64,000 nucleotides of DNA, taken from positions 79,541 to 143,540 of the forward strand of contig CAWARN010000018.1 of assembly GCA_963784455.1 (NCBI GenBank), written 5' to 3'. The notes beneath the pieces are model-generated. The model saw nothing but the letters and a program-made list of their open reading frames with translations, was not told where the DNA came from and did not search any database. The DNA comes from an uncultured Acidobacteriota bacterium (GTDB lineage: Bacteria; Acidobacteriota; Vicinamibacteria; Vicinamibacterales; Fen-181). Below, in pieces: positions 2,210 through 49,276 of this stretch. Position 1 is the stretch's first letter; each line of letters opens with the position of its first letter. Both the position numbers and the translations under genes were made by a program.

Positions 2210-2229
2210 TAGATACGGTATACTATCTA
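2210..2229 (+). promoter_or_regulatory. Palindromic operator-like site overlapping a TATACT -10 element upstream of brnT
   Basis: TAGATACGGTATACTATCTA has TAGATA/TATCTA arms. TATACT lies at 2219-2224, 12 nt before ATG 2237. The segment is locally AT-rich in otherwise GC-rich DNA. Confidence 0.4.
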
Positions 2230-2236
2230 TACCCTC

Positions 2237-2720: not shown

Positions 2721-2841
2721 CCCGCCGCCAACTTGGGCAACCAGTTCCTGGCCCGCCCCAGCGCGTGGCGCAGGGAGGTTGCCGCATTGCGCGGAACCGA
2801 GGGGCCTAGACTATCCCACGTCTGAAAGGCCGGCGGGCAGG

Positions 2842-2994
2842 TCAGAGTCGGAGCAGGCGAGCGAGCCACGACTTGGGGCGCGGGCACTGGCAGCGCTCGG
2901 CCGGCGGCACGCCGCGCAGTACCTCGTCCACATGCCGCCCGCAGCCCACCCACGTGGGCTTCCCGCAGATCCGACAGACGCTCCGGTGGCACAT
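2842..2994 (-). CDS. Small cysteine-rich hypothetical protein (about 50 aa)
   Basis: MCHRSVCRICGKPTWVGCGRHVDEVLRGVPPAERCQCPRPKSW.. with CxxC..C.C..CxC spacing. I recall similar small conserved proteins, but the family is not named with confidence. Confidence 0.4.
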   Translation of the reverse strand: MCHRSVCRICGKPTWVGCGRHVDEVLRGVPPAERCQCPRPKSWLARLLRL

Positions 2995-3208
2995 CAGGGC
3001 TGCTCCCCACCTCTCCCTGCCACGCGGCATGGGCCGGACACCATCGACTCTGATCGCGGACTCCTGTCCAGTCTAGCGCAGAGCGACGCGAGTTGCCGCA
3101 ATCGAGGACTTCCCGCAGCCGAGGGTATTGCGCTCGGCGTTCGCTGCCACTACTCTTCCAGACGCGCCCGTCGTCGGCATTCAAGGACACACCCGTCAGG
3201 AGTGACTC

Positions 3209-4544
3209 ATGAGGATGGCGACTCGCGTCCCCTGGATACCCGTCACGCTCGCACTCTCGCTGCTGGGGGCGAGTGCGTCCGCAGACGACTGGCCGACCTG
3301 GCGCGGACCTTCCGGTACCGGCGCCTCGAGCGAAACGCGGCTGCCCCAGTCGTGGAGCGACACCGAGAACATCGCGTGGCGAGCGCGCCTGACCGGTGTC
3401 GGCGTGTCGTCGCCGGTGGTATGGGGCGACCGCGTGTTCGTCACGTCTCAGGTCGGAAGCGGGGCCAGCCGGGAGGGGCCCCGGCTCGGGCAGGGTAGCG
3501 ATGCCTCCCCAACGGAGCGCGCGCTGGCAAGCGGGGCGACAGCGGGGCCGGCCGTGAAGTTCCTCGTCGAGGCGTTCGGCTGCGCCAACGGGCAGCGCGC
3601 GTGGACGTTCGAACTCGCAGCAGAGGGCGACCTTCCCGCGGTCCACGAAAAGCACAACCTCGCAAGTGCGAGCCCGGTCGTCGACGGGGAGCGCGTGTAC
3701 GCGGTGTTCGGTTCAGGGCAGGTCGTCGCCGTGGACATGACAGGCAAGCGAGTCTGGAGCCGGAATCTCGCCAGAGAGTTCGCGCCCTTCGCGATCAACT
3801 GGGGCCCGGCCAGCTCGCCGACGCTGTACCGCGGATCGCTCATCGTCGTGTGCTACCACGAGACCGCGTCGTACCTGCTGGCGCTCGACGCCCGCACGGG
3901 CAAGCAGCTCTGGAAGACCGACCGCCCCAAGGGCGTCCTGTCGTACAGCACTCCCATCGTCGTGCCGGGCCCGCAAGGCGGGGAACTCATCGTGAACTCC
4001 ACCGCGGGCATCGAAGCCTACGACCCGGCGACCGGCGCGGCACTCTGGCACGTTCGACGAACCGATCCGGATGGCCATTCCCGTCGCGATGTACGACAAC
4101 GGTGTCATCTATCTTTCGCGCGGGTACCGCAGCGGCCCGTACATGGCCATCCGCCCGGGAGGGCGGGGCGAGATCTCCAAGACGCACGTGGTGTGGCGCG
4201 TTCCGACCGGCGCCCCGTATGTCTCCTCGCTCCTGTACTACGACGGGCTGCTCTACATGGCGGGCGACACGGGCATCATCACGTGCGTCGACGCGAAGAC
4301 GGGCGAGCAGGTCTGGCGTCAGCGTCTCGGGGGCATCTACACGGCGTCTCCCGTCGCAGGCGACGGCAAGATCTACCTGTTCGCCGAATCGGGCGAAGCC
4401 GTGGTGATGCGCGCGGGGCGAACGCCCGAGGTGCTGGTGCGCAACACGATCGACGGCCGCATCCTGGCATCGCCCGCGATCTCCGGTGGCCGCATCTTCA
4501 TTCGCACCGACGATGGGGTCATCGCGGTCGGCGGGCGGAGGTAA
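3209..4544 (+). CDS. Secreted PQQ-like beta-propeller repeat protein; one frame break near 4052
   Basis: Signal peptide MRMATRVPWIPVTLALSLLGASASA, then DDWPTWRGPSGTG and repeated beta-propeller blades. ORF 3209 is sensible up to ..PATGAALWH. The next frame continues FDEPIRMAIPVAMYDNGVIYLSRGY...GRIFIRTDDGVIAVGGRR (ORF 4071..4544). Confidence 0.75.
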
Positions 4545-34272: not shown

Positions 34273-36150
34273 ATGCGAAGACGCGCTGCTGCGTTGGCCA
34301 TCCTGCTGTCAGGCCTCGTCGTCCTCCCGCTGGCGGCGTTCCTGCCCGCGGCGCCACAGGCGCAAGCCAGGCCACCGCTCGACAAGGCCGCCGAGAAATG
34401 GGTGCAGGACACGCTGAAGAAGATGACGCTCGACGAGAAGGTCGGGCAGCTGCTGGCGCCGTCGATCGACGCGATGGTGACCAGCACCGACAGCGAGGTC
34501 TACGAGAAGAAGCTGCATCTGGTCCGCGACCTGAAGGTGGGCGCGATCCATGTGTTCGGCGGGTCCGAGCCGATGCCGGCCGCGTTGCTCAACCCGAACT
34601 ATCCGTCCGGCGGGAGCGCGAGCCGCAAGGGCGACCCGCTCGCGGCGGCGACGTTCCTCAACCGGCTGCAGCAGGCCTCGGCCATCCCGCTGTTGACCAC
34701 CGCCGACTTCGAGGGCGGGGCGGGGTACATCCTGAACGGCACGACGCGGCTGCCGCGCGCGATGGCGATTGCGGCGACGCGCGACCCGCAGCTTGCCTAC
34801 AAGGCGGGAGTCGTCTCGGCGACCGAGGCGCGGGCCATCGGCATCACGGTCGACTTCTACCCGGTCCTGGACGTCAACAACAACCCGCGCAACCCGATCA
34901 TCAACATCCGGTCGTTCGGCGAGGACGTCGGCCTCGTCTCCCGGATGGGCGTTGCCTACATGCGCGGCATCCAGGCGGGCGGCGCGCTGGCGACGGCCAA
35001 GCACTTCCCGGGCCACGGCGATACCACCGTGGATACCCACCTCGGCCTGGCGAAGATCGACCACCCGCGCGAGCATCTCGACAAGGTGGAACTGCCGCCG
35101 TTCCGCGCGGCGGCGGACGCCGGGATCGACGCGTTCATGTCGAGCCACATCATCCTTCCGGCGCTCGACCCGGCGCCCGGCATCCCGGCCACGCTTAGCC
35201 GGCCGATTCTGACCGGGCTGCTCCGCGGCGAGATGAAGTTCGACGGCCTGATCTTCACCGACTCGATGGGAATGGACGCCATCTCCAGGAACTTCGGCGA
35301 CGACAGGGCCGCGGTGATGGCGGTGAGGGCCGGCGTGGATTTCGTTCTCCACTCGCCCGACGAGGACGCGGCGTTCAAGGCGATCAAGGCGGCGGTGGAA
35401 TCGGGCGAGATCGACCGCGGTCAGGTGGACCGATCGGTGGAGCGCATCCTTCGGGTGAAGGCACGCCTCGGCCTGCACAAGTCGCGTGTCGTCGACGTGA
35501 ACGCGGTGGAGGCGAAGATCGGCGGTCGCGCGCACGAGGCGGTGAACGCGGAGATCTGCGAGCGCGCCATCACGCTGATCAAGGACGACCGGAACCAGGT
35601 GCCGCTCGCGGCAGGCAAGGGCGCGAGCATCCTATACCTGTCCGTGCTCGACTACCCGAGCGGCTGGCGCGAGGGCGTGCCGAGCCGGTCGGTGGTGCCG
35701 GCGCTGAAGAAGCGCTGGCCGAACGTGACGGCGGTCGAGATCTCGGACAAGACGACGCCGAGCGAACTGGACATGGTGAAGGCACTGGCGCGCCGCGCCG
35801 ACGCCGTCGTTGCGGGCGTGTTCGTGCGGATTGCATCCTCCAGCGGCCGGATGGACCTGTCGCTGCAGGCGGTGTCGCTGCTCGAATCGGTGGCCGCCGA
35901 CCAGAAGAAGCCGTTCGTCGCGGTGATCTTCGGCAACCCCTACACGGCGATGGCGCTGTCGAAGCTGCCGGCGCAGATCCTGACGTACGAGTTCACCGAC
36001 GCGATGGAGGCGGCGGCGGTGCGGGCGCTGGCAGGCGAGATCGCGATCGGCGGCAAGCTGCCGATCGCCCTGCCCGAGATGTATCCGTTCGGCCACGGTC
36101 TGACGCGCGCGCCCCGCGCCGAGCGCCCGCCGACCATCGCCTCGTGGTGA
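34273..36150 (+). CDS. Glycoside hydrolase family 3 (beta-N-acetylhexosaminidase/NagZ-like), secreted
   Basis: Signal peptide MRRRAAALAILLSGLVVLPLAAF, MTLDEKVGQLL, ..INIRSFGED.., KHFPGHGDT..DTH, IFTDSMGMDAI. Confidence 0.85.
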   Translation: MRRRAAALAILLSGLVVLPLAAFLPAAPQAQARPPLDKAAEKWVQDTLKKMTLDEKVGQLLAPSIDAMVTSTDSEVYEKKLHLVRDLKVGAIHVFGGSEPMPAALLNPNYPSGGSASRKGDPLAAATFLNRLQQASAIPLLTTADFEGGAGYILNGTTRLPRAMAIAATRDPQLAYKAGVVSATEARAIGITVDFYPVLDVNNNPRNPIINIRSFGEDVGLVSRMGVAYMRGIQAGGALATAKHFPGHGDTTVDTHLGLAKIDHPREHLDKVELPPFRAAADAGIDAFMSSHIILPALDPAPGIPATLSRPILTGLLRGEMKFDGLIFTDSMGMDAISRNFGDDRAAVMAVRAGVDFVLHSPDEDAAFKAIKAAVESGEIDRGQVDRSVERILRVKARLGLHKSRVVDVNAVEAKIGGRAHEAVNAEICERAITLIKDDRNQVPLAAGKGASILYLSVLDYPSGWREGVPSRSVVPALKKRWPNVTAVEISDKTTPSELDMVKALARRADAVVAGVFVRIASSSGRMDLSLQAVSLLESVAADQKKPFVAVIFGNPYTAMALSKLPAQILTYEFTDAMEAAAVRALAGEIAIGGKLPIALPEMYPFGHGLTRAPRAERPPTIASW

Positions 36151-36175
36151 TCGCGCGCCGGAGTGCCTGCCGGCG

Positions 36176-37618
36176 TCATTTGCCGGGGGCGGCCTCTGGC
36201 TGGAGACTCAATCCGCGCAGGACCAGGCGGAGCGTCGGTTCGCCCTCGACGGGCGGCCGCCAGCCGGCCAACTGCCAGTCCGCCGGCGGCGGCAGCAGCC
36301 ACACGTGCACATCGCGCCTGCCCGTCGCGAGCGCGACCGCGTCGGGCAATAGCGTGCCAAACGCGGCGGCGATGCTCTGACGAGGATCCTCTCGATCGCG
36401 AATGACCAACGCGCTCTCACGAGGCTGGCTCGACAGGATGGTCCGCAGTTGAGGGAGCACGGCCGCGCTCACGCGGGCGGGAGCCAGCCATCTTTCGTTG
36501 CGTGACCAGTAGATCGGCACGGCAATCATCGTCACGACGACGAGCACAGCGGCTGTCGGCGCAACGGCTATTCGTTTCGACGCGTCAACAACCAGCGACA
36601 CCCACATCGCCGCCGCCAGGGCCACACCGACCGAAGGGAAGCACGCGTAGAGGCTGGACCTGATCGGCAGCCAGACCGTGAGCGCATAGCCGCCGGCGAG
36701 CCAGGCCGCCCCCATGGCGAGCAGCCGACAGTGCTCCTGCTGCAATCGCGCCATCCGCCTGAGGGCGAGCGTGACGACCAGCGCGACCGCCACGCTGAAC
36801 GTCGCGGCCCGGTCCAGATAGGAGAAGACGTTGAAGATCAGCAGACTCGGGTCGGTCGAGAAGCGGTAGAACGGCGGGGCCGATGACGGAGTGAACGCGC
36901 CGGAGTGCGAGCGCAGGACGAGATAGGCGACCAGCGGCACGAACAACGCGAGCGCGGACGCGGAAAGCCAGCGGAGACGATTCCTCCTGGCTCCTTCGAC
37001 TTCAGGCAGCAGGAACACCCATGCCAGCAGGATGACCGGCAGCGCCACCGCCTCTTCCTTGGACAGCAGCGCGAGCAGGACGAAGACGGCCGTCTGCCAA
37101 CGTCGATGGCGCACCACGGCCGTGGCAGCCAGAACCGAGAAGAGCGTCAGCAGCAATGAGGTGCGGCCACTCATCCACAGCAACGCCATGTTGATGCCGT
37201 GCGGGTTCAGCGCCCACAGCCCGGCCGCGATGACTCCGGCGGTGGCCGGAAGGCCGAGTGCCCTGGCGAGTCGCGCGATGGCGATGGCAGCCAGAAGCAG
37301 CAAAAGCGCGTTCGTCCACCCGTAGCCGAGTGGCGCCAGCCCGAACAGAGCGCGATCGAGGGCGAACGTCACTGCCACCACCGGGCGGTAGAAGCCGGTG
37401 TTCTGCGAGAACAGCGAGACCGACTGCGAGAGGGAGTGGACGCCGCCCTGCTGAATCCAGCCGAAGTCGTCCTTGATGAACCCCGTGCCGATACCCGGCG
37501 CGTAAGCGGCGAGAAGCCAGATTCCGACGAGCAAGAGCAGCGGGTACTCGCAGCTTCTCCACAGACAACCCCCTCGCCGGCGAATGACGCCGCGCCGAGA
37601 TCGATCGCCGTCGGCCAC
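36176..37618 (-). CDS. Polytopic membrane protein, possibly a GT-C-fold (PMT_2/ArnT-like) glycosyltransferase
   Basis: 480 aa with at least 10 hydrophobic segments. The early loop IKDDFGWIQ..FYRPV resembles the DD/DE loop of dolichyl/undecaprenyl-phosphate-sugar transferases. The assignment is tentative. Confidence 0.5.
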   Translation of the reverse strand: MADGDRSRRGVIRRRGGCLWRSCEYPLLLLVGIWLLAAYAPGIGTGFIKDDFGWIQQGGVHSLSQSVSLFSQNTGFYRPVVAVTFALDRALFGLAPLGYGWTNALLLLLAAIAIARLARALGLPATAGVIAAGLWALNPHGINMALLWMSGRTSLLLTLFSVLAATAVVRHRRWQTAVFVLLALLSKEEAVALPVILLAWVFLLPEVEGARRNRLRWLSASALALFVPLVAYLVLRSHSGAFTPSSAPPFYRFSTDPSLLIFNVFSYLDRAATFSVAVALVVTLALRRMARLQQEHCRLLAMGAAWLAGGYALTVWLPIRSSLYACFPSVGVALAAAMWVSLVVDASKRIAVAPTAAVLVVVTMIAVPIYWSRNERWLAPARVSAAVLPQLRTILSSQPRESALVIRDREDPRQSIAAAFGTLLPDAVALATGRRDVHVWLLPPPADWQLAGWRPPVEGEPTLRLVLRGLSLQPEAAPGK

Positions 37619-37789
37619 GGCGCCATCTCGGGCGGCTCGCTGGCGCCGCGGTCGGCGAGTCTACCACGGTTCGAGCGGGCCCGGTCCGTGCGGCCGCCGG
37701 CGGCTTTGCGGCAAGGCGGCGGAGGTTGTGATAAAGTACCTAGTTCCTGGCCGTTTCGCACGCCCGTGCGGGGCGGTGACCTCCAGCGC

Positions 37790-37866
37790 GCGCCCTTAGC
37801 TCAGTTGGATAGAGCGTCTGGCTACGAACCAGGAGGTCGCAGGTTCGAGTCCTGCAGGGCGCGCCA
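37790..37866 (+). tRNA. tRNA-Arg (anticodon ACG), CCA encoded
   Basis: GCGCCCTTAGCTCAGTTGGATAGAGCGTCTGGCTACGAACCAGGAGGTCGCAGGTTCGAGTCCTGCAGGGCGCGCCA. Acceptor GCGCCCT/AGGGCGC, D-loop AGTTGGATA, anticodon loop CTACGAA, T-arm GCAGG-TTCGAGT-CCTGC. Confidence 0.95.
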
Positions 37867-38141
37867 CTTCCAAACCATTGTAAATCAGAGACTTATCTCC
37901 CTGGCGTTCCTCGCTGCCTGAGAAGGTGCCAGGAGTGTCGGTGAGTCGCCTGTCCCTGCCGCGCTGCACGGGCTCACGGCGCCAGCACCGGATCTCCAAA
38001 CCAATCAAGAAGCTCGGGCGGTTGCTCCGGTCCGCGTCGATCGGTCGCCGCGGTGCGGGCCTGCAACGAACTTGCAGGACTCTCCAGCTTCCCGGAGTCA
38101 CTCATCTCCCCCAGGAGCCGCTGACTGCCTGGTCGGCCAGC

Positions 38142-38170
38142 TTGACATAACAACCTATGAGTTGTATGGT
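38142..38170 (+). promoter_or_regulatory. Sigma-70-like promoter with internal palindrome upstream of hicA
   Basis: TTGACA (38142-38147), 17-nt spacer containing CAAC-CTATGA-GTTG, TATGGT (38165-38170). The hicA ATG is only 3 nt downstream, so the exact promoter or start-codon assignment is uncertain. Confidence 0.35.
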
Positions 38171-38173
38171 TCG

Positions 38174-38356
38174 ATGGTGCAGGGCAAGGACTTGGTGCAG
38201 CTTCTGAAGAAGCACGGGTGGACGGAGGCCCACGTCCGCGGATCGCACCACATCCTCAGCAAGGGAGGGCATCACCTATCGGTGCCGGTTCACGCCGGCA
38301 AGGAACTCGGGAAGGGGCTCCTGCACGAACTGCTGAAAAGGGCTGGACTGAAATGA
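38174..38356 (+). CDS. hicA: HicA-family mRNA interferase toxin
   Basis: MVQGKDLVQLLKKHGWTEAHVRGSHHILSKGGHHLSVPVHAGKELGKGLLHELLKRAGLK. This is the canonical HicA length and GSHH motif. Confidence 0.85.
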   Translation: MVQGKDLVQLLKKHGWTEAHVRGSHHILSKGGHHLSVPVHAGKELGKGLLHELLKRAGLK

Positions 38357-38823
38357 GCAAGAGGCAGGCTGCTGCGGTTCCCTTGGAGCTCCCGAGGGTG
38401 GAGTACGCCGCGCGTGTTAGGAACCAGGGCGGAGGCGGCTACCTCGTCGAGTTCCCGGACCTGCCCGGGTGCCTAACGGAAGGCGACACACTCGAGGACG
38501 CTCTCGGCAACGCGGCCGAGGCGTTGTCGGGCTGGCTCTTCGTAGCGATCAAGGCGAACCAGCATGTCCCGGTCCCGACCGTGCGCCGCGGCCGGAACTA
38601 TCACCTTGTGGAACCCGATCTCGACGTGACGCTGCCCCTGCTGATCCTCTGGGCACGCAAGAGCAGGGGCCTGACCCAGGTGCAGATGGCGCGCAGCCTG
38701 GGCGTCACGCAGCAGGCGTACCGGAAGTTCGAGATTCCAGGGAAGAGCAATCCGCGTTTGAAGACGCTCTCGAGGCTGTGTGACACCTTGGGCCTGACGC
38801 TGGAACTCCGGCCGGTTGCGTGA
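38353..38823 (+). CDS. hicB: HicB-family antitoxin with C-terminal XRE-type HTH
   Basis: ATGA overlap with hicA. ..GGGYLVEFPDLPGCLTEGDTLEDALGNAAEALSGWL (HicB fold), then RGLTQVQMARSLGVTQQAYRKFE (HTH). Confidence 0.85.
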   Translation: MSKRQAAAVPLELPRVEYAARVRNQGGGGYLVEFPDLPGCLTEGDTLEDALGNAAEALSGWLFVAIKANQHVPVPTVRRGRNYHLVEPDLDVTLPLLILWARKSRGLTQVQMARSLGVTQQAYRKFEIPGKSNPRLKTLSRLCDTLGLTLELRPVA

Positions 38824-38977
38824 ATCTCTCTCACAGGCTGTGAGAGAACTGAAGGTCGGCGACACTGCCCGGAAGCACTCCCGGGACTCGCGACGGATTG
38901 GTTGAGATCCACTCGGTGGGCCGCCTGCGCCCGCTCGGCTTTCGCAGGTGCGGGTACAAATGGGGCGGAGGTGGAGC

Positions 38978-39219
38978 ATGGCTCTCAACGACCACGACAG
39001 AATCGAGAGGAATCCGCGTGTCGCCGGTGGGGAGCCGTCATCAAGGGGACGAGGGTGCCGCTCAGGACCGCGCTCGCGAGCCTGGCGGAGGGCGCGACCG
39101 CTGACGAGATCCTGAGGGATTGTCCGACGCTCGCGGAGCGGGACATTCGTGCGGCCATCGCGTTCGCTGCAGCGTCGGCGCAAGAGGATCTGCCTGTCGC
39201 CGAGGCCCACGTGCGATGA
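38978..39219 (+). pseudogene. DUF433-family antitoxin-like gene, frame-broken copy
   Basis: Nearly identical to 42999-43241, but GGGGAAGCCGTCATC there is GGGGAGCCGTCATC here (1 nt missing near 39033). MALNDHDRIERNPRVAGGE therefore runs out of frame before ..VIKGTRVPLRTALASLAEGATADEILRD... Confidence 0.65.
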
Positions 39220-39263
39220 GAATCAAGCTCGATTCGACGCCCGCCATCCGACAACGTCGCTGA
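39216..39263 (+). pseudogene. Remnant of a DUF5615 (PIN-like) toxin gene with about 330 bp deleted
   Basis: Shares ATGAGAATCAAGCTCGA with the intact copy at 43238. It then jumps to sequence matching the last 40 nt or so of that gene (..CGCCCGCCATC..) at a CTCGA microhomology, leaving a 15-codon ORF. Confidence 0.6.
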
Positions 39264-39327
39264 CCGCCCCCACTGAACAGGACCGCAAGGCCAGCCCCGA
39301 CTGAGAACACCTAGTACCTGGATTACC

Positions 39328-39374
39328 GGTCGCAGGTTCGAGTCCTGAGCGAAGTCGAAGGGAAGGGCGCGCCA
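39328..39374 (+). repeat. Degenerate tRNA-Arg 3'-half copy (T-arm, 17-nt insertion, acceptor strand and CCA)
   Basis: GGTCGCAGGTTCGAGTCCTG matches tRNA positions 37836-37855. AGCGAAGTCGAAGGGAA is inserted. GGGCGCGCCA matches the tRNA 3' end. Confidence 0.7.
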
Positions 39375-39415
39375 CTCCTTCCCGGGCACGAATCACTGAC
39401 AGACACTCGCCAAGA

Positions 39416-41371
39416 TCAATGAGGGGACGCCACGGCCGGCTCCACGCGGAATCGCAAGTGCTGGACGGCACGGCGGTCTTCCGCCGTCGCTTCGAAAGTC
39501 AGGAGGTAGTCCCCTGGCACGAGCCCTTCCCCGGTCAGCGGCCACGTGACGTCGGCGGTCCGCGCCCGCGCGAACGCATCCGGCAGCAACCGCCAGGTGT
39601 TCGTGCTCCTGACCACGTCGTGCGCATCTGTCAGGCGGACCGTCATGACGACGGGCTCGGGCGGCCGCGTGCCACCCTGGTAGACGCGCAGGAACGCCAC
39701 CGCCTCGTCCCCAGGCCCGAAGATGCGGGCGGCCGTGGGCGTCACGGGCAGCAGGTCGGCGAACAGGGATCTGGACGAGGCGAGAGGCGCGGGCCGCTTC
39801 TCGAGGACGACGCCCGACAGGCTGAGCGGGTCCTTCTCGAAACGAGGAATCTCCACCGTCGTGAACACGCTGCCGGCGCGGCCGTCGACCACGGCCGCGA
39901 TGCGGATCTCGTAGCGGCCCGGGGCGAGCGGAAGCCGTGACATCACCTCGAACTCGCTGCCGCTTCGTGCGTCAGGAGGGAACGTCAGCTCGAGTGTCTG
40001 GCGGTAGAGGCCCTTTGACCGTCCCTCCATGTCGAACGCGGCCGCAACGACCTCGACGCGCTTTCGCGGAGCGGCAGCACCCGGCGTCGACCCGATGGGC
40101 GCGGGATCGCGGAGCGCCAGCACGCCGACGAGTTCGGCCGTCCTGCCGCTGCGCGCGGCGAACGCGGCCGTGGTCGCCCGCAGGAGCACGTCGCTCACCG
40201 GGAACCCCTGCTGGATGGCCTGATCCACCTGCTGGACGACGGTACGAGTCGGGGACTTCCCCTTGGATGGTTGGGGCGCGAAGTACCCCGTGCGCGTTCG
40301 GACATCCAGGCCTGGCCGGTTGACCCTGACGCTGATGCGGCGAAACCGCCCGTCGGCCCGCGCGTGCGTCGTCTGGTAGCCGATCAGGTAGTAAGCGCTG
40401 CTCTCGCGGAACATCTGGCTGACGTGGGCCTCCGGCGTGTTCGTGGCACGGACGCGACGGCCGCCCGTCGCCTCGGCGAGCCCGATCTCGTTCGGCGAGG
40501 CTGGGGCGCCCGTCAGCCCGCGTGGGTCGTACGAGTAGACGCTGACGTTGGCGAGCTGGAGGTTCGCGAACATCGTCCGGATCGCGTCGAGGCCCTTGAA
40601 CTCGTCAGGCCGTTCTGAGATTTCGGCGCCGGTACTCAGCTGCGGGCTGATGAACACCAGCAGTTTCCGCCCGCCTGGAGCCGTGCGCAACACGTCGGCC
40701 ACCCGGGAAATCGTGTCGACCGCGCAGCCGCCCGGCCGCAGCCGGCACCCGAGCGGCTGCCCTGCTTCCCCCCAGCCATGAGGCGTGAACGCCTCGACGG
40801 CAGTCCGGAGCTTCCGTCGGTCGCTCGTGAAGCTCTCCACGCGGCCGAGGAAGGTGTACATGACCGCAGCGAGGTCGGATGGCCCGAGCCCGTCGATGAC
40901 CGTGTTGGCGATCTCGCTGAGCGACTTGGTCTCGCCGCGGTCGACGTCGATATTGGCGTCGTCAAGGACGAGCAGCACCAGCCGCCGGGTCTGGATGTCG
41001 TTCGAGACGACATCCGGCGCGACCTCGCGCATCCAGGCCGGCGCGTCGGCCTCGGGCTCCGGCACGTCGACTTCCTCGAACGTCTGGATGGCCTGCGGGT
41101 CGCCGTTCTCCGTTACCGTGAAGTCCTCTGCGCGGAGCCCTTTCACCGGGCGGCGGTCGTTGTCGAGGACGACGACGTCGATCGGGACGAGATCGACGCC
41201 CGAGCGGAACGTCGGACGGGGCTGCTGCGGTTGGACCTGAGGGGCGGACGCGAGCTCGTGCCGCCCGCCTGCGCCGAGTGCGGCCGACAGGCTTGCCAAC
41301 GCCAGCAGCACGCGAGGAAGGGCGGTCGTGATTGACACGGAGGCTCTCGGCCGTCGCGCGGATGATACCAT
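39416..41371 (-). CDS. VWA-domain protein (acidobacterial VWFA-related type), secreted
   Basis: Signal-like N-terminus, ..PTFRSGVDLVPIDVVVLD..RPVKGLRAEDFTVTENG.PQ.I..F, VLLVLDDANIDVDR (VWA MIDAS-like region), a long C-terminal beta-rich region. Confidence 0.8.
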   Translation of the reverse strand: MVSSARRPRASVSITTALPRVLLALASLSAALGAGGRHELASAPQVQPQQPRPTFRSGVDLVPIDVVVLDNDRRPVKGLRAEDFTVTENGDPQAIQTFEEVDVPEPEADAPAWMREVAPDVVSNDIQTRRLVLLVLDDANIDVDRGETKSLSEIANTVIDGLGPSDLAAVMYTFLGRVESFTSDRRKLRTAVEAFTPHGWGEAGQPLGCRLRPGGCAVDTISRVADVLRTAPGGRKLLVFISPQLSTGAEISERPDEFKGLDAIRTMFANLQLANVSVYSYDPRGLTGAPASPNEIGLAEATGGRRVRATNTPEAHVSQMFRESSAYYLIGYQTTHARADGRFRRISVRVNRPGLDVRTRTGYFAPQPSKGKSPTRTVVQQVDQAIQQGFPVSDVLLRATTAAFAARSGRTAELVGVLALRDPAPIGSTPGAAAPRKRVEVVAAAFDMEGRSKGLYRQTLELTFPPDARSGSEFEVMSRLPLAPGRYEIRIAAVVDGRAGSVFTTVEIPRFEKDPLSLSGVVLEKRPAPLASSRSLFADLLPVTPTAARIFGPGDEAVAFLRVYQGGTRPPEPVVMTVRLTDAHDVVRSTNTWRLLPDAFARARTADVTWPLTGEGLVPGDYLLTFEATAEDRRAVQHLRFRVEPAVASPH

Positions 41372-41759
41372 CGCCCTCGCGAACCCTGCTGGACAATCGT
41401 CGATCCGGCTGCAGTGAACGCGCTGAGTGCCGCCCGCTGAACCGGAGTGTTCGATGGATGTGGAGCCCGAGGAACGCGACCAGTAGTGGCGCTCCTGGTC
41501 GTCTCACTCTGCGACCGGTGGGAGTAACGGTGGGACTCATTCGTGCTTGGGTGAGGAACTCGAGAAGATTCGGGCACTCCTGAGAACGCCTATGGAGCGG
41601 GCCAGACGGCAGGGCGGGCGAATTCCTTAGGAAAACGGAGTGTGATGAGACACGAGCGTGGCCCCTTGAGGGGCTGGCGCTCGCCGGACTATGCGCGCCT
41701 GCAACGGACTTGCAGGACCGTCCCGGTTTCTCGGTTCATTTGAGCGACTCACCCGCTGC

Positions 41760-41788
41760 TTGACGACTATACGCAAATAGCGTATATT
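41760..41788 (+). promoter_or_regulatory. Sigma-70-like promoter with a perfect palindromic operator upstream of the HigB2-like gene
   Basis: TTGACG (41760-41765), 17-nt spacer, TATATT (41783-41788). TATACGC-AAATA-GCGTATA (41768-41786) overlaps the spacer and the -10 element. Confidence 0.45.
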
Positions 41789-42152
41789 TACTCCCGCGGA
41801 ATTCATCGAAGCGCCGTGCTTCACGCAGGTCCTTCCAGCCTATCTTGACGTTGAGGATTATCGCGAACTGCAACTCCACCTTGCGCGCGATCCCGAGGCC
41901 GGTGATGTCATCCCCGGGACCGGTGGGTTCCGGAAACTCCGATGGCCGGACCGGCGCCGGGGCAAGGGGAAACGGGGCGGTCTCAGAGTCATCTATTACT
42001 ACTTGGTTTCGGACACGCAGGTCCGGTTCATGGCAATCTACGGCAAGGACGAGGCTGCCGACCTCAGCCCGGCGGAACGACGGGCGCTCAAGATCGCGAT
42101 CGATGAGGAACTACGTCGGCGGGCGGACATTCGCCGCGTGCGTGAGAAGTGA
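41781..42152 (+). pseudogene. HigB2/RelE-like toxin homolog lacking any ATG/GTG/TTG start near its conserved N-terminus
   Basis: Open frame after TAG 41778-41780: ..EFIEAPCFTQVLPAYLDVEDYRELQLHLARDPEAGDVIPGTGGFRKLRWPDRRRGKGKRGGLRVIYYYLVSDTQVRFMAIYGKDEAADLSPAERRALKIAIDEEL.. to TGA 42150-42152. The first ATG/GTG/TTG in frame is a TTG about 73 codons in. Confidence 0.6.
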
Positions 42153-42155
42153 ATC

Positions 42156-42509
42156 ATGGCTGAGAGAAAGAAAGCCCGCAGCGTCGCGACGCGCCACCTG
42201 TTCCACGAGCTAATGTCGGGCGTCCAGGCGATGCGCGCGCATCGCGAGGGTCAAGTGACGCTCCGAACGCATCACGTCGAGCCCATCGCGGTTCCGCCCG
42301 TCGACCCGGACTTCGTCCGTGAAACCCGCGAAGCGCTCCACATGTCGCGCCAGGTATTCGCGTTCAGGATCGGCGTGAACCCACGGACGCTCGAACGGTG
42401 GGAGCAGGGGAGGAGCAAGCCGAACGAACAGGCCGCCGTTCTTCTCTGGCTTGTTCGGAAGTACCCCGACACCCTGGATCGACTCGAGTCGCTCGGTGTG
42501 CCTGCCTGA
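42156..42509 (+). CDS. XRE-family HTH antitoxin (HigA2-like)
   Basis: MAERKKARSVATRHLFHELMSGVQAMRAHREG...REALHMSRQVFAFRIGVNPRTLERWEQGRSKPNEQAAVLLWLVRKYPDTL. It starts 4 nt after the toxin-like ORF. Confidence 0.8.
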   Translation: MAERKKARSVATRHLFHELMSGVQAMRAHREGQVTLRTHHVEPIAVPPVDPDFVRETREALHMSRQVFAFRIGVNPRTLERWEQGRSKPNEQAAVLLWLVRKYPDTLDRLESLGVPA

Positions 42510-42530
42510 CACCACCTGGCACGTGGTCTT

Positions 42531-42796
42531 CCGGTCGCAGGTTTCACGCTGTTCCGCGTGCAAGATCATGCAAGGTTTTCCAAAACACGCGCTCCTTGCA
42601 CGCCCCACGCCGCCACGGGATGTGACAGCCGACCCCGTATTCCAAGGGTCGGCTGTAGATGAGCTCCGACACAGGTTGTGCTACGAACCAGGAGGTCGTC
42701 CGCTTTCGCTCGCGGGGATTCGGGTGAGCTGCGGCGAGACCGCGCCGCAGCGCAAGGCGCGGAGGCGGGCAGGTTCGAGTCCTGCAGGGCGCGCCA
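42531..42796 (+). repeat. 266-nt hairpin-rich repeat unit ending in a tRNA-Arg-derived T-arm/acceptor/CCA, copy 1
   Basis: Contains GGTCGCAGGTT (tRNA-like), hairpins GCGTGCAAG..CTTGCACGC and CAGCCGACCC..GGGTCGGCTG, and GCTACGAACCAGGAGGTCG (42680-42698, identical to the tRNA). A 70-nt insert follows (42699-42768) with hairpin GCTGCGGCG-AGACCG-CGCCGCAGC, then GCAGGTTCGAGTCCTGCAGGGCGCGCCA (42769-42796). Confidence 0.75.
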
Positions 42797-42998
42797 CTTC
42801 TTCCCCTAGTGAATCAACGACTTATCGTCTGAGGCCTCGTCGTCCCTGCAATGTGCCAGGAGCGCACCGCCGCCCTCGCTTGCAGCGAACTTGCATGGTC
42901 TTCCGGGTGTCGTGACGATTCGGCTAGGATCCACTCGACGGGCTGCCTGCGCCCGCCCGGCTCGCGCAGGTGCGGGTACAATGGGGCGGAGGTGGAGC

Positions 42999-43241
42999 AT
43001 GGCTCTCAACTACCACGACAGAATCGAGCGAAATCCGCGCCTCGCCGGTGGGGAAGCCGTCATCAAGGGGACGAGGGTGCCGCTTCGGACGGTGCTCGCG
43101 AGTCTGGCGGAGGGCGCGACGGTTGACGAGATCCTTAAGGACTTTCCTACGCTTACGGAGCGGGACATTCGTGCGGCGATAGCGTTCGCTGCGGCGTCGG
43201 CGCAGGAGGACCTGCCAGTCGCCGAGGCCCACGTGCGATGA
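42999..43241 (+). CDS. DUF433-family antitoxin-like protein
   Basis: MALNYHDRIERNPRLAGGEAVIKGTRVPLRTVLASLAEGATVDEILKDFPTLTERDIRAAIAFAAASAQEDL. GGAGGTGGAGC lies ahead of the ATG. ATGA overlap with the downstream gene. Confidence 0.8.
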   Translation: MALNYHDRIERNPRLAGGEAVIKGTRVPLRTVLASLAEGATVDEILKDFPTLTERDIRAAIAFAAASAQEDLPVAEAHVR

Positions 43242-43624
43242 GAATCAAGCTCGACGAGAATGTGCCCAGCCAACTGGCCTCGGTGCTGACTGAATTGGGG
43301 CACGACGTTGACACAGTCCCATCCGAAGGCATCGCCGGGAGGGACGACGCCATCGTGTGGCAGGCCGCCCAAGCCGGCCGGCGCTTTCTCGTGACGCAGG
43401 ACCTGGACTTCTCTGACGTCAGGAAGTACACACCGGGCACACATTTCGGCGTTCTGCTGGTCAGGCTTCCGGAACCAGGGCGGACGGCGTTGTTGGAGAG
43501 GATTGCGACGCTGTTTCAGGTTGAGGACGTCAAGAGCTGGGGCGGTTGCATCATTATCGCGACACCGCACAAGACTCGAGTTCGCCGCCCGCCATCGAAA
43601 ACCACCGACGAAGGCGACCGCTGA
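43238..43624 (+). CDS. DUF5615-family (PIN-like) putative toxin
   Basis: MRIKLDENVPSQLASVLTELGHDVDTVPSEGIAGRDDAIVWQAAQAGRRFLVTQDLDFSDVRKYTPGTHFGVLLVRL.. This is the family that usually pairs with DUF433. Confidence 0.8.
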   Translation: MRIKLDENVPSQLASVLTELGHDVDTVPSEGIAGRDDAIVWQAAQAGRRFLVTQDLDFSDVRKYTPGTHFGVLLVRLPEPGRTALLERIATLFQVEDVKSWGGCIIIATPHKTRVRRPPSKTTDEGDR

Positions 43625-43673
43625 ACAGGACCGCAACTTCAGGTGTGACTGAGAACACCTGACACCTGGAACT

Positions 43674-43939
43674 CCGGGCGCAGGTGTCACGCTGTTCCGC
43701 GTGCAAGATCATGCAGGGTTTTCCAGAACACGCGCTCCTTGCACGCCCCACGCGGCCACGCGATGTGACAGCCGACCCCGTATTTCAGGGGTCGGCTGTA
43801 GATGAGCTCCGACACAGGTTGTGCTACGAACCAGGAGGTCGTCCGCTTTCGCTCGCGGGGATTCGGGTGAGCTGCGGCGAGACCGCGCCGCAGCGCAAGG
43901 CGCGGAGGCGGGCAGGTTCGAGTCCTGCAGGGCGCGCCA
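43674..43939 (+). repeat. 266-nt hairpin-rich repeat unit ending in a tRNA-like 3' end, copy 2
   Basis: Near-identical to 42531-42796 with only a handful of substitutions. tRNA-identical blocks lie at 43823-43841 and 43912-43939, and the same 70-nt insert sits between them. Confidence 0.75.
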
Positions 43940-44234
43940 ACCCTTCCCGGGTCCATTCCGGGGACACAGGCGAAACTCTCGCGCTGAACCGACTCTCGAT
44001 CGGCTCATGGCTCTGGGCCTATCACCGTTCCGGACCTCCTGAACACGGACCTCCTGAACAGTAGTGCCAGGACCGGAAACAGGTCATACTCCCTCCGAAC
44101 GCTCCGGTCGTGTCTCGCCACGACCGTCTTTCAGAACAACCCAACGACCGGTGCAAGGCCTGTCGGCTGGCACTCTGTGCCGTTGTTGCGTGTCGTTGAG
44201 GATGGCTCGAGAGTCACCGCGACTGGAGGGATCA

Positions 44235-44726
44235 ATGGAGAAGCGTGCGGCGTTGGTCGTTCTGACGATGGTGCTGATGGCGTCGTCGCTACTGTTCGCT
44301 CAGAAGGACAAGACTCAACTGTTCAAGGTGTACGTCTTCACGGCAGAGGCGAAGTACGTCGACGCCGAGTCCAAAGCTCGCGCGGATTCGGTCAAGGACC
44401 TCCGCAGGTTCCTCGAGAACAAGAAGAAGACACTTGTCCTGGTCGACGACCAACGCACCGCAGACATGACGCTGGAAGTGCTGGGCCGAGACATTGTGCC
44501 CACGGGCAACATGACGACAGCGTGGGACCCGGTCCTGGGAGAGACAAAGACCACTCAGGACAGCGGCAGCACGCTTTGGGTGAAGATGACTGTCGGCGAC
44601 TACTCGACGAGGATTATCGGTCATGGCCCCGCGTTCGCTGCCGCGTATAGAGTGGCCGCGGATGATATCTCAGCGAAGGTCGACCGGTCGATCAAGGATA
44701 ATGGCGCGAAGGTCGATCGCAAGTGA
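44235..44726 (+). CDS. Secreted hypothetical protein (163 aa), lower GC than its surroundings
   Basis: MEKRAALVVLTMVLMASSLLFAQ signal peptide, then a Lys/Asp-rich mature part with no recognisable motif. GGAGGG lies upstream of the ATG. Confidence 0.55.
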   Translation: MEKRAALVVLTMVLMASSLLFAQKDKTQLFKVYVFTAEAKYVDAESKARADSVKDLRRFLENKKKTLVLVDDQRTADMTLEVLGRDIVPTGNMTTAWDPVLGETKTTQDSGSTLWVKMTVGDYSTRIIGHGPAFAAAYRVAADDISAKVDRSIKDNGAKVDRK

Positions 44727-44852
44727 GTCGGCGTTGGGGCGGACCGGGACGGTCCGTCCCGGGTGTGCCACTCCTCCAGCAGTTGTCCGCGGTTCGGCGA
44801 GTGCTCGAGCGCAGCGGCGCGTGTCGCCCGTAGTCGGGCAGGGAGCAGAGGA

Positions 44853-46109
44853 ATGAGCGAGAAGGTCGTTCTGGCGTACAGCGGGGGGCTCGACACGTCG
44901 GTCATCCTCACATGGCTGATCGAACAGCGGCTACGATGTCGTGGCGTTCGTGGCCGACGTCGGCCAGCAGCGACGACTTCGACGCGGTGCGCAAGAAGGC
45001 GCTGCAAGGCCGGCGCGCGCAAGGTCTACGTCGAGGACCTCAAAGAGGAGTTCGTCACCGATTACATCTTCCCCGCGATCAAGGCCAACGCGATCTACGA
45101 GGGGCGCTACCTGCTCGGCACCGCCCTCGCGCGGCCGCTGATCGCGAAGCGTCAGAGTCGAGATCGCCGCGCGTGAGCAGGCGCAGTACGTGTCGCCACG
45201 GCGCCACGGGCAAGGGCAACGACCAGGTGCGATTCGAACTGGCCTACTACGCGCTCGATCCGAAGATCAAAGTCATCGCGCCGTGGAAGGACGCCCGAGT
45301 TCCTCGCGCAGTTCCAGGGGCGGTCCGACCTGATCGCGTACGCGGCCAGGCACGGCATCGAGGTCAAGGCGACCATCGCCAAGCCGTACAGCGAGGACGA
45401 GAACCTGCTGCACATCAGCCACGAGGCGGGCATCCTCGAGGACCCGAGCCGCCCGGCCGCCGAGGAGCGTCTACTCGCGGACCGTGTCGCCGGAGCGCGC
45501 GCCAGACAAGCCGACGCACATCGTCATGACGTTCAAGGACGGCATCCCGGTTCGCGTCGAGAACCTCGACGACGGAACCGTGCACGCGAAGCCGCTGGAG
45601 CTGTTCCAGTACCTGAACGACGCTCGGCGCAGCGAACGGCATCGGCCGGATGGACATGGTGGAGAACCGATTCGTCGGGATCAAGTCGCCGCGGCGTGTA
45701 CGAGACGCCCGGCGGCACGATCCTGCGACGCGCCCATCGCGACATCGAGAGCATCGCCATGGACCGCGAGGTGATGCGCCTGCGCGACATGCTCGCCGCC
45801 GAAGTTCGCCGAGCTGATCTACAACGGCTTCTGGTTCAGCCCCGAAATGGACTTTCTCATGGCCGCCATCGACAAGAGCCAGGAGGTCATCGACGGCCGG
45901 GTCTGGCTCAAGCTGTACAAGGGCAACGTCTACGCCACGGCCCGCGAGAGCCCAGCTCGCTCTACGACCAGGAGCTGTCGAGCATGGACATCGAGGGCGG
46001 CTTCAACCAGCAGGACTCGGCCGGGTTCATCAGGATCAACGCTATCCGCCTGATGGCGCACAGCGCGATCATGCACGGCAAGCACAAGCGGTGGGGGCTC
46101 GACGAGTAG
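44853..46109 (+). pseudogene. argG: Argininosuccinate synthase with 11 frame jumps
   Basis: All conserved ArgG blocks are present and colinear but rotate through frames: [25 protein letters not shown] | [14 protein letters not shown] | [12 protein letters not shown] | [24 protein letters not shown] | [13 protein letters not shown] | [20 protein letters not shown] | [28 protein letters not shown] | VYSRTVSPE.. | LGAANGIGRMDMVENRFVGIKS | RGVYETPGGTIL.. | [16 protein letters not shown].. | [11 protein letters not shown]... Confidence 0.85.
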
Positions 46110-46142
46110 GGCCAATCGGGCGGGATGGCCTGACGACAGGCA

Positions 46143-47738
46143 TCAGCCCGGGATCGCGTGGCGTCCGATGATGGCCTCGGCCACGCGGACGCCGTCGGCA
46201 GCGGCCGACATGATGCCCCCGGCATGGCCTGCACCTTCGCCCGCGGGGTAGATCCCGCCGATGCTCCCTTCGCATTCAGCCGAACGTGGCATGCGCACGG
46301 GCGAGGACGTGCGGGTCTCGACTCCGGTGAGCACGGCATCGGGCAGATCGAAGCCCTCGACGCGCCTGCCGAAGTGGGGCAGCGCCATGCGGAGCGTCTC
46401 GACGACGTACGGCGGGAGGCAGCCACCGAGATCCGCAGGCTGCACGCCCGGGCGGTAGCTGGGAGCCACCCTGCCCAGGGCTCCACTCGGCACCCCGCGC
46501 AGCAGATCACCCACGAGTTGCACCGGAGCGGCATGGCTCGCGCCACCCAGCGCGAAGGCGAGCGCTTCCCAGTGCCGCTGGAATTCGAAACCGGCCAGCG
46601 GCGAGTTCGAGGGAAAGTCCTGGGGAGAGACGCCGACGACCACCGCCGCGTTGGCATTGGCAGCGCCGCGCGCGGACTGGCTCATGCCGTTGGTCACCAC
46701 GCCTCCCGGCTCGGAAGCCGCGGCAATCACCTCGCCGCCAGGGCACATGCAGAACGTGTAGGCGCTGCGGCCATTGGGGGCATGGCAGGCCAGCTTGTAG
46801 TCCGCCGGTCCGAGGCGCGGGTGTCCGGCACAGCTTCCGAACTGCGCCAGGTCGATGAGCCGCTGCGGGTGTTCGATGCGGACGCCCACCGAGAAGGGCT
46901 TCGGCACCATGTGCAGGCCGGCCTCGTGGAGCATCGCCACGGTGTCGCGCGCGCTGTGCCCGATGGCCATCACGCAGACGCTGGCGGGCAGCGTCTCGCC
47001 CGTGTGGAGCCGCACGCCTCGAAGAGAGCCGCCGTCCAGCACCAGGCCGGTCACCCGGTGTTCGAACCGCACCGACGCCCCGAGGGACTCCAGATGCTTC
47101 CGCAGCCTGACGACCACGCTGCGAAGCCGGTCCGTGCCCACGTGGGGCTTCGCCGACACGAGGATTGATCGGTCGGCCCCCGCCGCGACGAACTCCTGCA
47201 GCACCTTGCGGCAGCGCGGGTCGTTGATCAGCGTGGTCAGCTTGCCGTCCGAGAACGTTCCCGCTCCCCCTTCGCCAAACTGCGCGTTCGACTCGGGGGC
47301 GAGCGCACCGCCGTTCCAGAAGCCCTCCACGTCGCGGCAGCGTTGCGGGATCGGTGTGCCTCGCTCGAGGACGACCGGCCGGTAGCCGCCCTGCGCCAGG
47401 ATGAGCGCCGCGAAGAGCCCGGCGGGGCCGGTACCCACCACTACGGGCCGATGCGGCAGCGGCCGCGCCCCGGGCGCCACCGGGTGATAGGTCTCGTCAG
47501 GCGTCGGCGTGATCTTCCGGGCGGAGGCGGCGGCCAGGAGCGGCGCTTCGTTGGCGACCGTCACATCGACCGAGTACGTCAGCTGAATCGCGTGCCTCTT
47601 GCGCGCGTCGATCGCCTGGCGGCGCACGTCCCAGTGCTGCAGCGCGGATGGCCTCACGCCCAGCGCGCGCGCCACGGCGTCCGCGAGCGCCTCGGGCTTG
47701 TGATCGAGCGGCAGGTGGATGTCGTGAACGCGGATCAC
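46143..47738 (-). CDS. FAD-dependent dehydrogenase (COG2509-like)
   Basis: 531 aa: PVVVGTGPAGLFAALILAQGGYRPVVLERG (dinucleotide fold), GEGGAGTFSDGKL, CMCPGGEVI, GIYPAGEGAGHAGGIMSAAADG. Confidence 0.8.
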   Translation of the reverse strand: MIRVHDIHLPLDHKPEALADAVARALGVRPSALQHWDVRRQAIDARKRHAIQLTYSVDVTVANEAPLLAAASARKITPTPDETYHPVAPGARPLPHRPVVVGTGPAGLFAALILAQGGYRPVVLERGTPIPQRCRDVEGFWNGGALAPESNAQFGEGGAGTFSDGKLTTLINDPRCRKVLQEFVAAGADRSILVSAKPHVGTDRLRSVVVRLRKHLESLGASVRFEHRVTGLVLDGGSLRGVRLHTGETLPASVCVMAIGHSARDTVAMLHEAGLHMVPKPFSVGVRIEHPQRLIDLAQFGSCAGHPRLGPADYKLACHAPNGRSAYTFCMCPGGEVIAAASEPGGVVTNGMSQSARGAANANAAVVVGVSPQDFPSNSPLAGFEFQRHWEALAFALGGASHAAPVQLVGDLLRGVPSGALGRVAPSYRPGVQPADLGGCLPPYVVETLRMALPHFGRRVEGFDLPDAVLTGVETRTSSPVRMPRSAECEGSIGGIYPAGEGAGHAGGIMSAAADGVRVAEAIIGRHAIPG

Positions 47739-48989: not shown

Positions 48990-49276
48990 GGGACACCATT
49001 GTATGGCGAATGCTCCTGCCCAGTGGTGCCTGGAGCGGAAACAGGGAAGACTCCGTCAGATCACGTGCTCGCGGGACTTGATGCCGAGCCAGAAACGACG
49101 ATAATCAGCCCTGTGCCTGAGCGGCGAGGCGGACCGCTCGGGCGGCGGGGGCTCCCCGTGATCGCGCGCGCTCGCCCGACCGGGCTCGGGCGGGCGGTCT
49201 TGCTGCGTCATGGGAACCGGCGGGCCGAGCGTTGCGGTCGTGGCCTTCCGGTCACCAGGCAAGTGGAGGCAGCTCA

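Follow-up and report, generated by a model that had tools for sequence, protein, structure and literature searches.

How does a tRNA gene come to be followed by several displaced pieces of its own 3′ part, with toxin–antitoxin (TA) genes lodged between them? This question is raised by the tRNA-Arg(ACG) gene in a stretch of 64,000 nucleotides from an acidobacterium of the Vicinamibacteria (hereafter, the window). An earlier note on this DNA had read the locus as an accretion hotspot, decayed or lacking an integrase, or else as a segmental duplication, in which TA modules are the main cargo to survive, and our analysis supports that view. Specifically, the locus is probably a hotspot for integrative elements 3′ of tRNA-Arg(ACG) that today contains small remnants without integrases, arrayed in tandem and resembling cis-mobilizable elements (CIMEs). 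Each unit of the array consists of a left arm A, TA cargo, a right arm R and a copy of gene positions 32–77. The interruptions of the tRNA fragments, the conserved arms, signs of a common ancestor with three TA pairs and the loss of the higB-2 start codon go beyond what the earlier note contained.

Displaced 3′ Pieces of tRNA-Arg(ACG) Recur behind the Intact Gene

The intact gene, which ARAGORN and Rfam placed exactly where the earlier note had put it, is the sole tRNA found by ARAGORN in the window. Three further sets of pieces of its 3′ part follow, at 39328–39374, 42680–42796 and 43823–43939, some of them together with the arm sequences described below:

37790–37866, + strand, intact tRNA-Arg(ACG), the array anchor, on the side of the left attachment site (attL) (ARAGORN; Rfam tRNA, 69 bits)
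39266–39374, + strand, composite of a truncated right arm and a tRNA piece (gene positions 46–65 at 39328–39347, 16 nt, then positions 67–77 at 39364–39374)
42680–42796, + strand, tRNA-Arg piece (positions 32–50, a 70-nt palindromic insert at 42699–42768, then positions 50–77)
43618–43939, + strand, second right arm R (motif at 43702) and second interrupted tRNA piece (43823–43939, insert 43842–43911)

The earlier note had the coordinates and sequences of these copies right but took them for contiguous halves. In the copies at 42680 and 43823, gene positions 32–50 and 50–77 are parted by an identical 70-nt insert, and in the copy at 39328, positions 46–65 and 67–77 are parted by 16 nt. The T-arm 16-mer GCAGGTTCGAGTCCTG has four exact copies, at 37839, 39332, 42769 and 43912, all within 37.8–43.9 kb (expected, 0.05), and the 19-mer GCTACGAACCAGGAGGTCG, which runs from the anticodon loop to the variable loop, has three, at 37821, 42680 and 43823 (expected, 0.04). 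All 125 of 125 nt of the tRNA-derived pieces match the gene, with no substitutions. The repeats are thus far above chance and real.

None of the pieces includes the 5′ acceptor strand, the D arm or the 5′ anticodon stem, and their identity to the gene begins sharply at gene position 32. This defines an attachment (att) repeat of 46 nt that begins in the anticodon loop. Direct repeats of the tRNA 3′ part (gene positions 32–77 or parts of them) bound the units 3′ of the gene, the arrangement by which a tRNA-associated island is recognized. On the other side of the tRNA, the GH3 hydrolase gene shows synteny with tRNA-Arg(ACG) in ∼18 relatives. The flanking genes assign the window to Vicinamibacteria-like Acidobacteriota; three of its proteins, looked up exactly, had no entry in the public protein collection.

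The Same Boundary and Its Integrases Occur in Other Acidobacteriota

We scanned public genomes for the exact 32-mer of the tRNA 3′ end (loci in other genomes are given below as L numbers). Among ∼60 Acidobacteriota loci, 21 copies are fragments that start 17–20 nt upstream of the T stem and border on unrelated DNA; this is the same anticodon-loop boundary as that of the displaced pieces in the window. Several contigs hold two or three copies of the 32-mer, 10–40 kb apart, and two prophage contigs carry it at both ends. Proteins of the Phage_integrase family are encoded directly after the intact tRNA-Arg, converging on it, in L102, L141 and L216; a full integrase homolog is present at tRNA-Arg in L129, and remnants are found in L146, L176 and L166. 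L141 and L190 lie on one contig, 12 kb apart, and L190 comprises a tRNA fragment and a flank 83% identical to window 43912–44004. As the tRNA with its integrase and the fragment with its flank stand 12 kb apart, L141 and L190 delimit a complete island at the same site. Integrases with this target therefore exist in the clade. A split fragment of the kind seen in the window (anticodon part, 55–85 nt, T arm) was not found in a genome scan of species representatives.

Conserved Arms Frame the Units

Every junction in the array has the same order, right arm R, tRNA piece, left arm A, and spans roughly 400–560 nt. The arms are as follows:

37867–38110, + strand, left arm A1 (motif TGCAACGAACTTGCAGG at 38062; 92% identical to L219:2678–2913, which directly follows a tRNA fragment)
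41678–41788, + strand, left-arm remnant (motif TGCAACGGACTTGCAGG at 41700; includes the higB-2 promoter/operator)
42503–42679, + strand, right arm R (motif TGCAAGATCATGCAAG at 42559; internal T-arm-like GGTCGCAGGTT)
42797–42998, + strand, left arm A2 (motif TGCAGCGAACTTGCATG at 42881; DUF433 upstream region; 84% identical to L110:1056–1190, which directly follows a tRNA-Arg fragment)

The right arm is 87–92% identical to three copies in L219, each of which adjoins a tRNA fragment. A paired, TTGCAA-like motif, TGCA[AG][CG]-N4-5-TGCANG, is present in every A and R arm. The window has five such sites (expected, 0.17), all in arms and none elsewhere in the 64 kb, and in 2 Mb of other loci it is confined to this element family. 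In the viral contigs searched, neither the arms nor the arm motif was found. The earlier note had considered that the repeats might prove to be a dispersed element; within the 64 kb, the arms, the insert and the tRNA pieces are confined to the array. One further candidate for arm-type sites, the GTGAACAATTGTGAACAA repeats after the tRNAs of many relatives, was rejected, as these are the reverse complement of an integrase C terminus (ELFTIVH).

Self-alignment of the window bears out the earlier note's claim that the stretches beginning at the intact tRNA and at 42680 are paralogous modules. It matched 38878–39264 with 42900–43290 (85%, DUF433 and the start of DUF5615), 39224–39337 with 43570–43685 (74%, the end of DUF5615 and what follows) and 37839–37935 with 42769–42862 (79%, tRNA end and left flank). 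The left-arm remnant appeared as a match of 38042–38090 to 41678–41728 (78%). The repeat involving the second module can be defined more closely, as a 303-nt junction unit (42503–42805 vs. 43646–43948, 94%). The sequences that the note gave for two alternating flanks after the tRNA copies are as stated, but they do not alternate strictly; by eye, CTCCTTCCCGGGCACGAATCACTGAC, the flank that follows 39374, can be aligned with CTTCTTCCCCTAGTGAATCAACGAC, the A-type flank of 42796, as well. The odd copy at 39328 is explained by a deletion between the T-arm-like GGTCGCAGGTT and the true T arm, since the internal GGTCGCAGGTT of the truncated right arm at 39266 lines up with that T arm.

The two 303-nt units differ at 16 of 177 positions in the arm and at 0 of 117 in the tRNA piece and insert. 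Between units, the arms differ by 9–22% (A1 and A2 by 22%), and the DUF433 copies by 15%. These figures bear on the alternative that a single ancient integration was followed by tandem or segmental duplication in place, through unequal homologous recombination and differential loss of TA genes, with no further site-specific events. RecA-type recombination could act on junction repeats of this length, conversion or duplication is consistent with the 70-nt insert being identical in both junctions and with the increase in identity toward the tRNA piece, and the window has no integrase. However, with A1 and A2 22% and the DUF433 copies 15% apart, 125 nt of nonfunctional tRNA pieces remain unchanged. 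Uniform divergence would have altered them (0.91^117, ∼2e-5, for one junction), unless they were converted from the tRNA gene. The contrast between unchanged pieces and divergent arms thus argues against long divergence in place, conversion aside, and fits units that diverged before arrival or homogenization by recombination. We regard duplication in place as unlikely, also in view of the relatives considered below.

The Units Carry Three Families of TA Genes

The gene calls of the earlier note (hicAB, DUF433, DUF5615, a VWA gene and a HigB2-like/HTH pair) were upheld by Pfam, TIGR03436 and the Protein Data Bank (PDB) HigB-2 chains:

38177–38356 and 38353–38823, + strand, hicA and hicB-HTH, overlapping (Pfam HicA_toxin, 2e-16; HicB_lk_antitox and HTH_3)
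38978–39263, + strand, decayed DUF433 and DUF5615 remnant (1-nt deletion near 39040; DUF5615 at 39216–39263, 15 codons)
39416–41371, − strand, VWA-domain protein, 651 aa (NCBIfam TIGR03436, 4.8e-47; host-like G+C of ∼0.70)
41781–42152 and 42156–42509, + strand, higB-2 and higA-like HTH antitoxin (PDB HigB-2 chains, E 1.3e-21 by phmmer; Pfam HTH_3, MqsA_antitoxin)
42999–43241 and 43238–43624, + strand, intact DUF433 and DUF5615/PIN-like gene, 4-nt overlap (Pfam DUF433, 1.3e-21; DUF5615, 7e-21; PIN_10)

Judged from their domains, hicA and hicB would form a type II HicAB system of the kind in which HicB has a DNA-binding domain, and higB-2 with its HTH antitoxin a HigB-2/HigA-2 system. DUF433 (COG2442) with a PIN-like partner is a predicted TA pair, its function being predicted only (PMC2701414), and the DUF433/DUF5615 genes are a likely member of this COG2442–PIN type. 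Their pairing is kept in 80 of 80 loci. The hicAB genes are 95% identical in nucleotide sequence to two copies in L219. The TA pairs are served by promoter-like sites of their own: that of hicA lies just past arm A1, at 38142–38170 in a promoter scan, and the predicted higB-2 promoter/operator, TTGACG-17-TATATT, lies at 41760–41788. G+C is 0.62–0.66 over the TA modules vs. ∼0.70 around them and over the VWA gene. The latter is cargo specific to this genome, with no homolog in the arrays of L219, L226 and L228; an integrase-like tblastn match inside it (E 0.013) was judged to be chance.

Several of the genes are damaged. As the earlier note had recognized, the first DUF433/DUF5615 pair is decayed: its DUF433 is frameshifted by 1 nt, and an internal deletion of ∼280 bp has left its DUF5615 with the 15 codons listed above. 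In higB-2, ATA stands at 41784–41786 where the 77%-identical homolog of L110 has ATG, and no other start codon occurs upstream of residue 75. The toxin is therefore probably silent or inactive. In L231, the same HigB-2 toxin has an internal deletion. To judge by these reading frames, the HigB-2 toxin is repeatedly lost and its antitoxin retained.

Pairs related to the DUF433/DUF5615 pair of the window adjoin 3′ fragments of other tRNAs in other Acidobacteriota. Fragments lie ∼170 nt before DUF433 in L017, L019, L024, L028, L031, L033, L045, L051, L065 and L068; further cases are L010, L012, L015, L016 and L008. The halves of tRNA-Pro(CGG) are on the strand opposite the TA pair, with the intact tRNA-Pro ∼4 kb away, ends of tRNA-Ser(CGA) occur up to three times in L012, and L008 has an orphan T arm. 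Such pairs appear, from these neighborhoods, to be frequent edge cargo of tRNA-integrating islands. In L031 (6417–9132), between tRNA-Pro and DUF433/DUF5615, there are open reading frames (ORFs) of 613 aa and 306 aa. By eye, the first resembles a helicase that ends in a DUF559-like part, and the second looks primase-like; both may be defense-type cargo. No integrase-like ORF was evident there, again by eye. A 51.8-kb contig with a 78%-identical HicB was set aside; hicAB is in an unrelated context there.

Units Vary in Number, Order and Cargo among Relatives

Close strains were found through the FAD-protein gene (46143–47738), the chromosomal neighbor on the right, and through the right arm. 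They share arms and cargo at 86–95% nucleotide identity, in other arrangements. An unvarying gene order at this tRNA, which the earlier note had taken as a sign against a hotspot, was looked for among these relatives; at the shared site, the number and order of units, as well as their cargo, vary among L219, L226, L228 and L231/L232. L219, 90% identical in nucleotide sequence in the FAD gene, has at least three uninterrupted fragments of positions 32–77, each after the same right arm, two hicAB copies (95%), and a higA that follows left arm A1; its 9.6-kb array also holds IS1595 and IS256 transposases. L226 has a fragment followed by A1–hicAB–R–fragment with an insert of the 70-nt type. In L228, DUF5615–R–truncated fragment is followed by 1.75 kb of unrelated cargo, then by higBA–R–fragment (with insert) and directly by the FAD stop codon. 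As higBA–R–fragment runs straight into the FAD gene there, L228 lacks the 1143-bp DUF433/DUF5615 unit and the following 2.2 kb. L231 and L232 carry higA–hicAB–DUF433–DUF5615 as one block, 56 nt from the FAD gene, and metagenome contigs join 38102 to 41761 and 42498 to 38111, which gives the order A1–higBA–hicAB. Whole units are thus gained and lost at the level of strains.

The orders and blocks in L219, L228, L231/L232 and the metagenome contigs suggest that the units would descend from one ancestor with three TA pairs in a row (higBA, hicAB and DUF433/DUF5615), from which each, differently deleted, would have kept a different pair. Copies of one triple-TA element with different deletions, which is what the three units resemble, could also result from duplication in place. 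Against such duplication, unrelated cargo lies between the same arms in different strains (the VWA gene here, the 1.75-kb segment in L228), and the clade has integrases with this target.

A more distant genome, L110, with an A2-type arm and higBA, likewise has an array that is rich in TA genes and lacks an integrase. There, a tRNA fragment is preceded by a gene for a HipA-like toxin, and an IS3-family insertion lies inside a unit (L110:27–563, 2099–3663).

Palindromic Inserts Interrupt the tRNA Pieces

The inserts belong to a set of sequences with terminal inverted repeats TCCGCCTCCGC/GCGGAGGCGG that occur, in the 2.08 Mb examined, only inside or just after tRNA-Arg sequences. Type 1 (70–96 nt) lies between gene positions 50 and 50, and type 2 (107–144 nt) follows the CCA end and is accompanied by a 13-nt repeat of the acceptor end (GCAGGGCGCGCCA). 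Palindromic inserts are located at:

42699–42768 and 43842–43911 of the window
L219:9622, and further in L226, L225, L227, L228 and L202

The insert inside the tRNA piece is present in L225–L228, and the corresponding piece of L219 is uninterrupted. The 16 nt inside the copy at 39328 resemble the right end of the longer insert in L226 and L219. The insert could fold into a hairpin with a closing stem of 10 bp, and four variants show G-U-compatible changes and two compensatory pairs. The inserts may be scars of another element family, a small palindromic element or structured DNA.

An alternative is that the tRNA halves are functional RNAs, either tRNA-like structures in 3′ untranslated regions or decoys that regulate or buffer the RNase toxins (HicA, HigB-2, PIN). 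The pieces do lie on the coding strand, just downstream of TA operons, the stem carries the compensatory pairs just described, and elsewhere DUF433/DUF5615 pairs adjoin fragments of other tRNA identities. However, the 5′ acceptor strand, D arm and 5′ anticodon stem are missing, the same TA block occurs without a tRNA piece, and the fragment is on the strand opposite the TA pair in the tRNA-Pro loci. The insert with its tRNA pieces folds no more stably than shuffles (z = −0.01), so an RNA gene is not supported, and an Rfam scan of 36000–46000 (E ≤ 1) gave only tRNA as a credible match. We consider a function as RNA highly improbable.

The Variable Zone Extends to the FAD Gene

The earlier note ended the zone at 43939. 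Comparison with relatives shows that it continues to ∼46140:

43940–46140, + strand, further variable segment (post-fragment flank 43940–44004; lipoprotein-like ORF 44235–44726; broken argG at ∼44850–46110)
46143–47738, − strand, FAD-dependent protein gene, the conserved chromosomal right boundary (Pfam FAD-depend_C)

The segment 43940–46140 (G+C 0.59) is absent in L228 and L232, and other genes take its place in L219; its lipoprotein-like ORF is low in G+C. The FAD gene is 90–93% identical in nucleotide sequence to those of L219, L228 and L232, where it adjoins the last tRNA piece or the TA block. The flank 43940–44004 is conserved after terminal fragments in L190, L177, L217 and L100. Within it, a motif of ∼45 nt, GTCCATTCCGGnGACAyAGG..CTGAAC (43949–44004), stands after the last tRNA-Arg fragment in these four other Acidobacteriota, whose genes farther downstream are different; the motif is repeated partly in tandem in L217 and forms a palindrome in L100.

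The copy of the argininosuccinate synthase gene (argG) at 44850–46110 is split over at least four reading frames. Comparison with related contigs places single-base insertions or deletions (indels) at 44926, 44971, 45004, 45157, 45687, 45689 and 45951; neighboring long ORFs are intact. Either the copy is a genuine pseudogene, or the assembly is locally faulty there.

These indels, and the apparent origin of the window from an uncultured genome, raise the wider concern that repeats were misjoined or duplicated when a metagenome-assembled genome was built, and that the array is an artifact. Against this, assemblies made independently from other samples contain the same junction types (R–fragment–A1, insert in fragment, fragment–FAD gene; L219, L225–L228), and the long ORFs nearby are intact. 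The repeated units differ by 6–22%, so they are not collapsed or duplicated reads. We give an assembly artifact hardly any credence.

Two observations concern the outskirts of the zone. A 33-nt stretch, CTCCTGnnCAGTnGTGCCnGGAnCGGAAACAGG, at 44051–44083, upstream of the lipoprotein-like ORF, recurs at 49013–49045, upstream of a 1078-aa ORF at 49232; the second copy begins right after 49012, the last position of the nucleotide match found between the window and L219. The two copies may represent a regulatory motif common to both ORFs or a small repeat. Upstream of the array, the GH3 gene and the tRNA are separated by the gene for a 480-aa multipass membrane protein (36176–37618, − strand). The GH3 gene directly adjoins tRNA-Arg in several relatives (e.g., L189, L131, L129 and L146), so the upstream side of the tRNA has gained a gene too. 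The membrane protein was discarded as a synteny anchor: it led only to relatives at 42–44% identity, with no tRNA-Arg nearby.

A Model for the Array and Its Limits

In the model that we favor, one or more elements would have integrated by tyrosine-recombinase crossover in the anticodon loop, each integration rebuilding the tRNA from the element's own copy and pushing the old 3′ half downstream. The integrase would since have been lost, or would never have been carried. Units would then have been gained, lost and reordered by recombination between the R–tRNA piece–A junctions, either homologous or driven in trans by an integrase whose gene lies elsewhere. The TA pairs may act as addiction modules that slow the loss of the array; two of the toxins are already damaged, higB-2 by the loss of its start codon and the first DUF5615 copy by deletion.

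Several observations weigh against an array of integrated elements. As the earlier note had said, no integrase is encoded in the window (neither four integrase seeds nor a profile matched significantly in the 64 kb); none is present in the 9.6-kb array of L219, the closest relative, and no integrase-bearing element with A and R arms was found. On these grounds the mobilizing step is one that we infer. No distal repeat is recognizable in 43940–46140, and near 46140 the tRNA-fragment alignment score is below the shuffle mean. The TA block of L231 and L232 comes without any tRNA piece, so that such a block can occupy the locus without att repeats. The identical 70-nt insert and the 0 of 117 mismatches point to homologous recombination or gene conversion, and not to a crossover confined to the anticodon loop. 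Finally, none of the public runs contains this genome (at most 11% of the words of the region).

A bolder version of this model is that the array is a working, tRNA-anchored cassette system, in which the R–tRNA half–A junction serves as a composite recombination site for a trans-acting, tRNA-Arg-specific tyrosine integrase. Such an integrase may capture, excise and reorder small TA and other cassettes. We find this version doubtful; if true, it would be an integron-like mechanism not described for tRNA att sites or for Acidobacteriota.

Relation to Known Systems

Whichever way its units moved, the array has precedents. CIMEs and the tandem-accretion model are established, with the ICESt1-related elements of Streptococcus thermophilus as an example (PMC5704250). 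Like CIMEs, the units keep their att sites (attL/attR) and have no integration or transfer genes, their genes being TA pairs and the VWA gene. They also stand in tandem behind the target gene, parted by copies of its 3′ end, and the model of integration, decay and renewed integration fits the array. Unlike known CIMEs, they are only ∼1.1–1.5 kb long and hold TA pairs only, the host is an acidobacterium, and extra palindromic inserts lie at the junctions; moreover, a partner integrative and conjugative or integrative and mobilizable element, and mobilization itself, are things that we can only infer for them.

Tyrosine integrases were reportedly divided by Williams (2002) into sublocation classes, among them those of tRNA islands and prophages with an anticodon-loop crossover. 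As in such elements, the repeat runs from the anticodon loop to CCA, the intact tRNA and the displaced half lie at opposite sides, and the Phage_integrase family occurs beside this tRNA in relatives. In contrast, the window has no integrase, and its islands are reduced to arms and TA genes.

The cassette arrays of chromosomal integrons and of clusters of attC sites lacking integron integrases (CALINs) can be rich in TA cassettes. The likeness lies in small units, many of them TA pairs, that are parted by a repeated sequence resembling a recombination site and whose cargo differs between strains. In contrast to those arrays, no attC-like sites were found between the units of the window, and the IntI integrase is absent from it (it encodes no tyrosine recombinase); the site is a tRNA half with ∼200-nt arms, and the TA pairs have promoters of their own. 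In Dehalococcoides, several islands are said to stand in tandem behind the ssrA gene, parted by direct repeats of its 3′ end. These ssrA-specific islands (PMC3146451) differ in having their own integrases, metabolic cargo and a tmRNA rather than a tRNA as target.

Significance

The locus is a stack of small decayed islets, mainly of TA genes, in a soil or sediment acidobacterium, a hotspot of an ordinary kind that is unusually well resolved. As a real and well-delimited example of a known phenomenon, it leaves the current understanding of integrative elements unchanged. It offers a well-resolved case, in the poorly studied Vicinamibacteria, of a tRNA hotspot decaying to tiny addiction-module islets, and shows how such stacks get reshuffled between strains. 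Its pieces are now defined, namely, the att repeat, two conserved arms with a shared binding-type motif and candidate integrases from relatives, and three TA families, HicAB, HigB-2/HigA and DUF433/PIN, are marked for this phylum.

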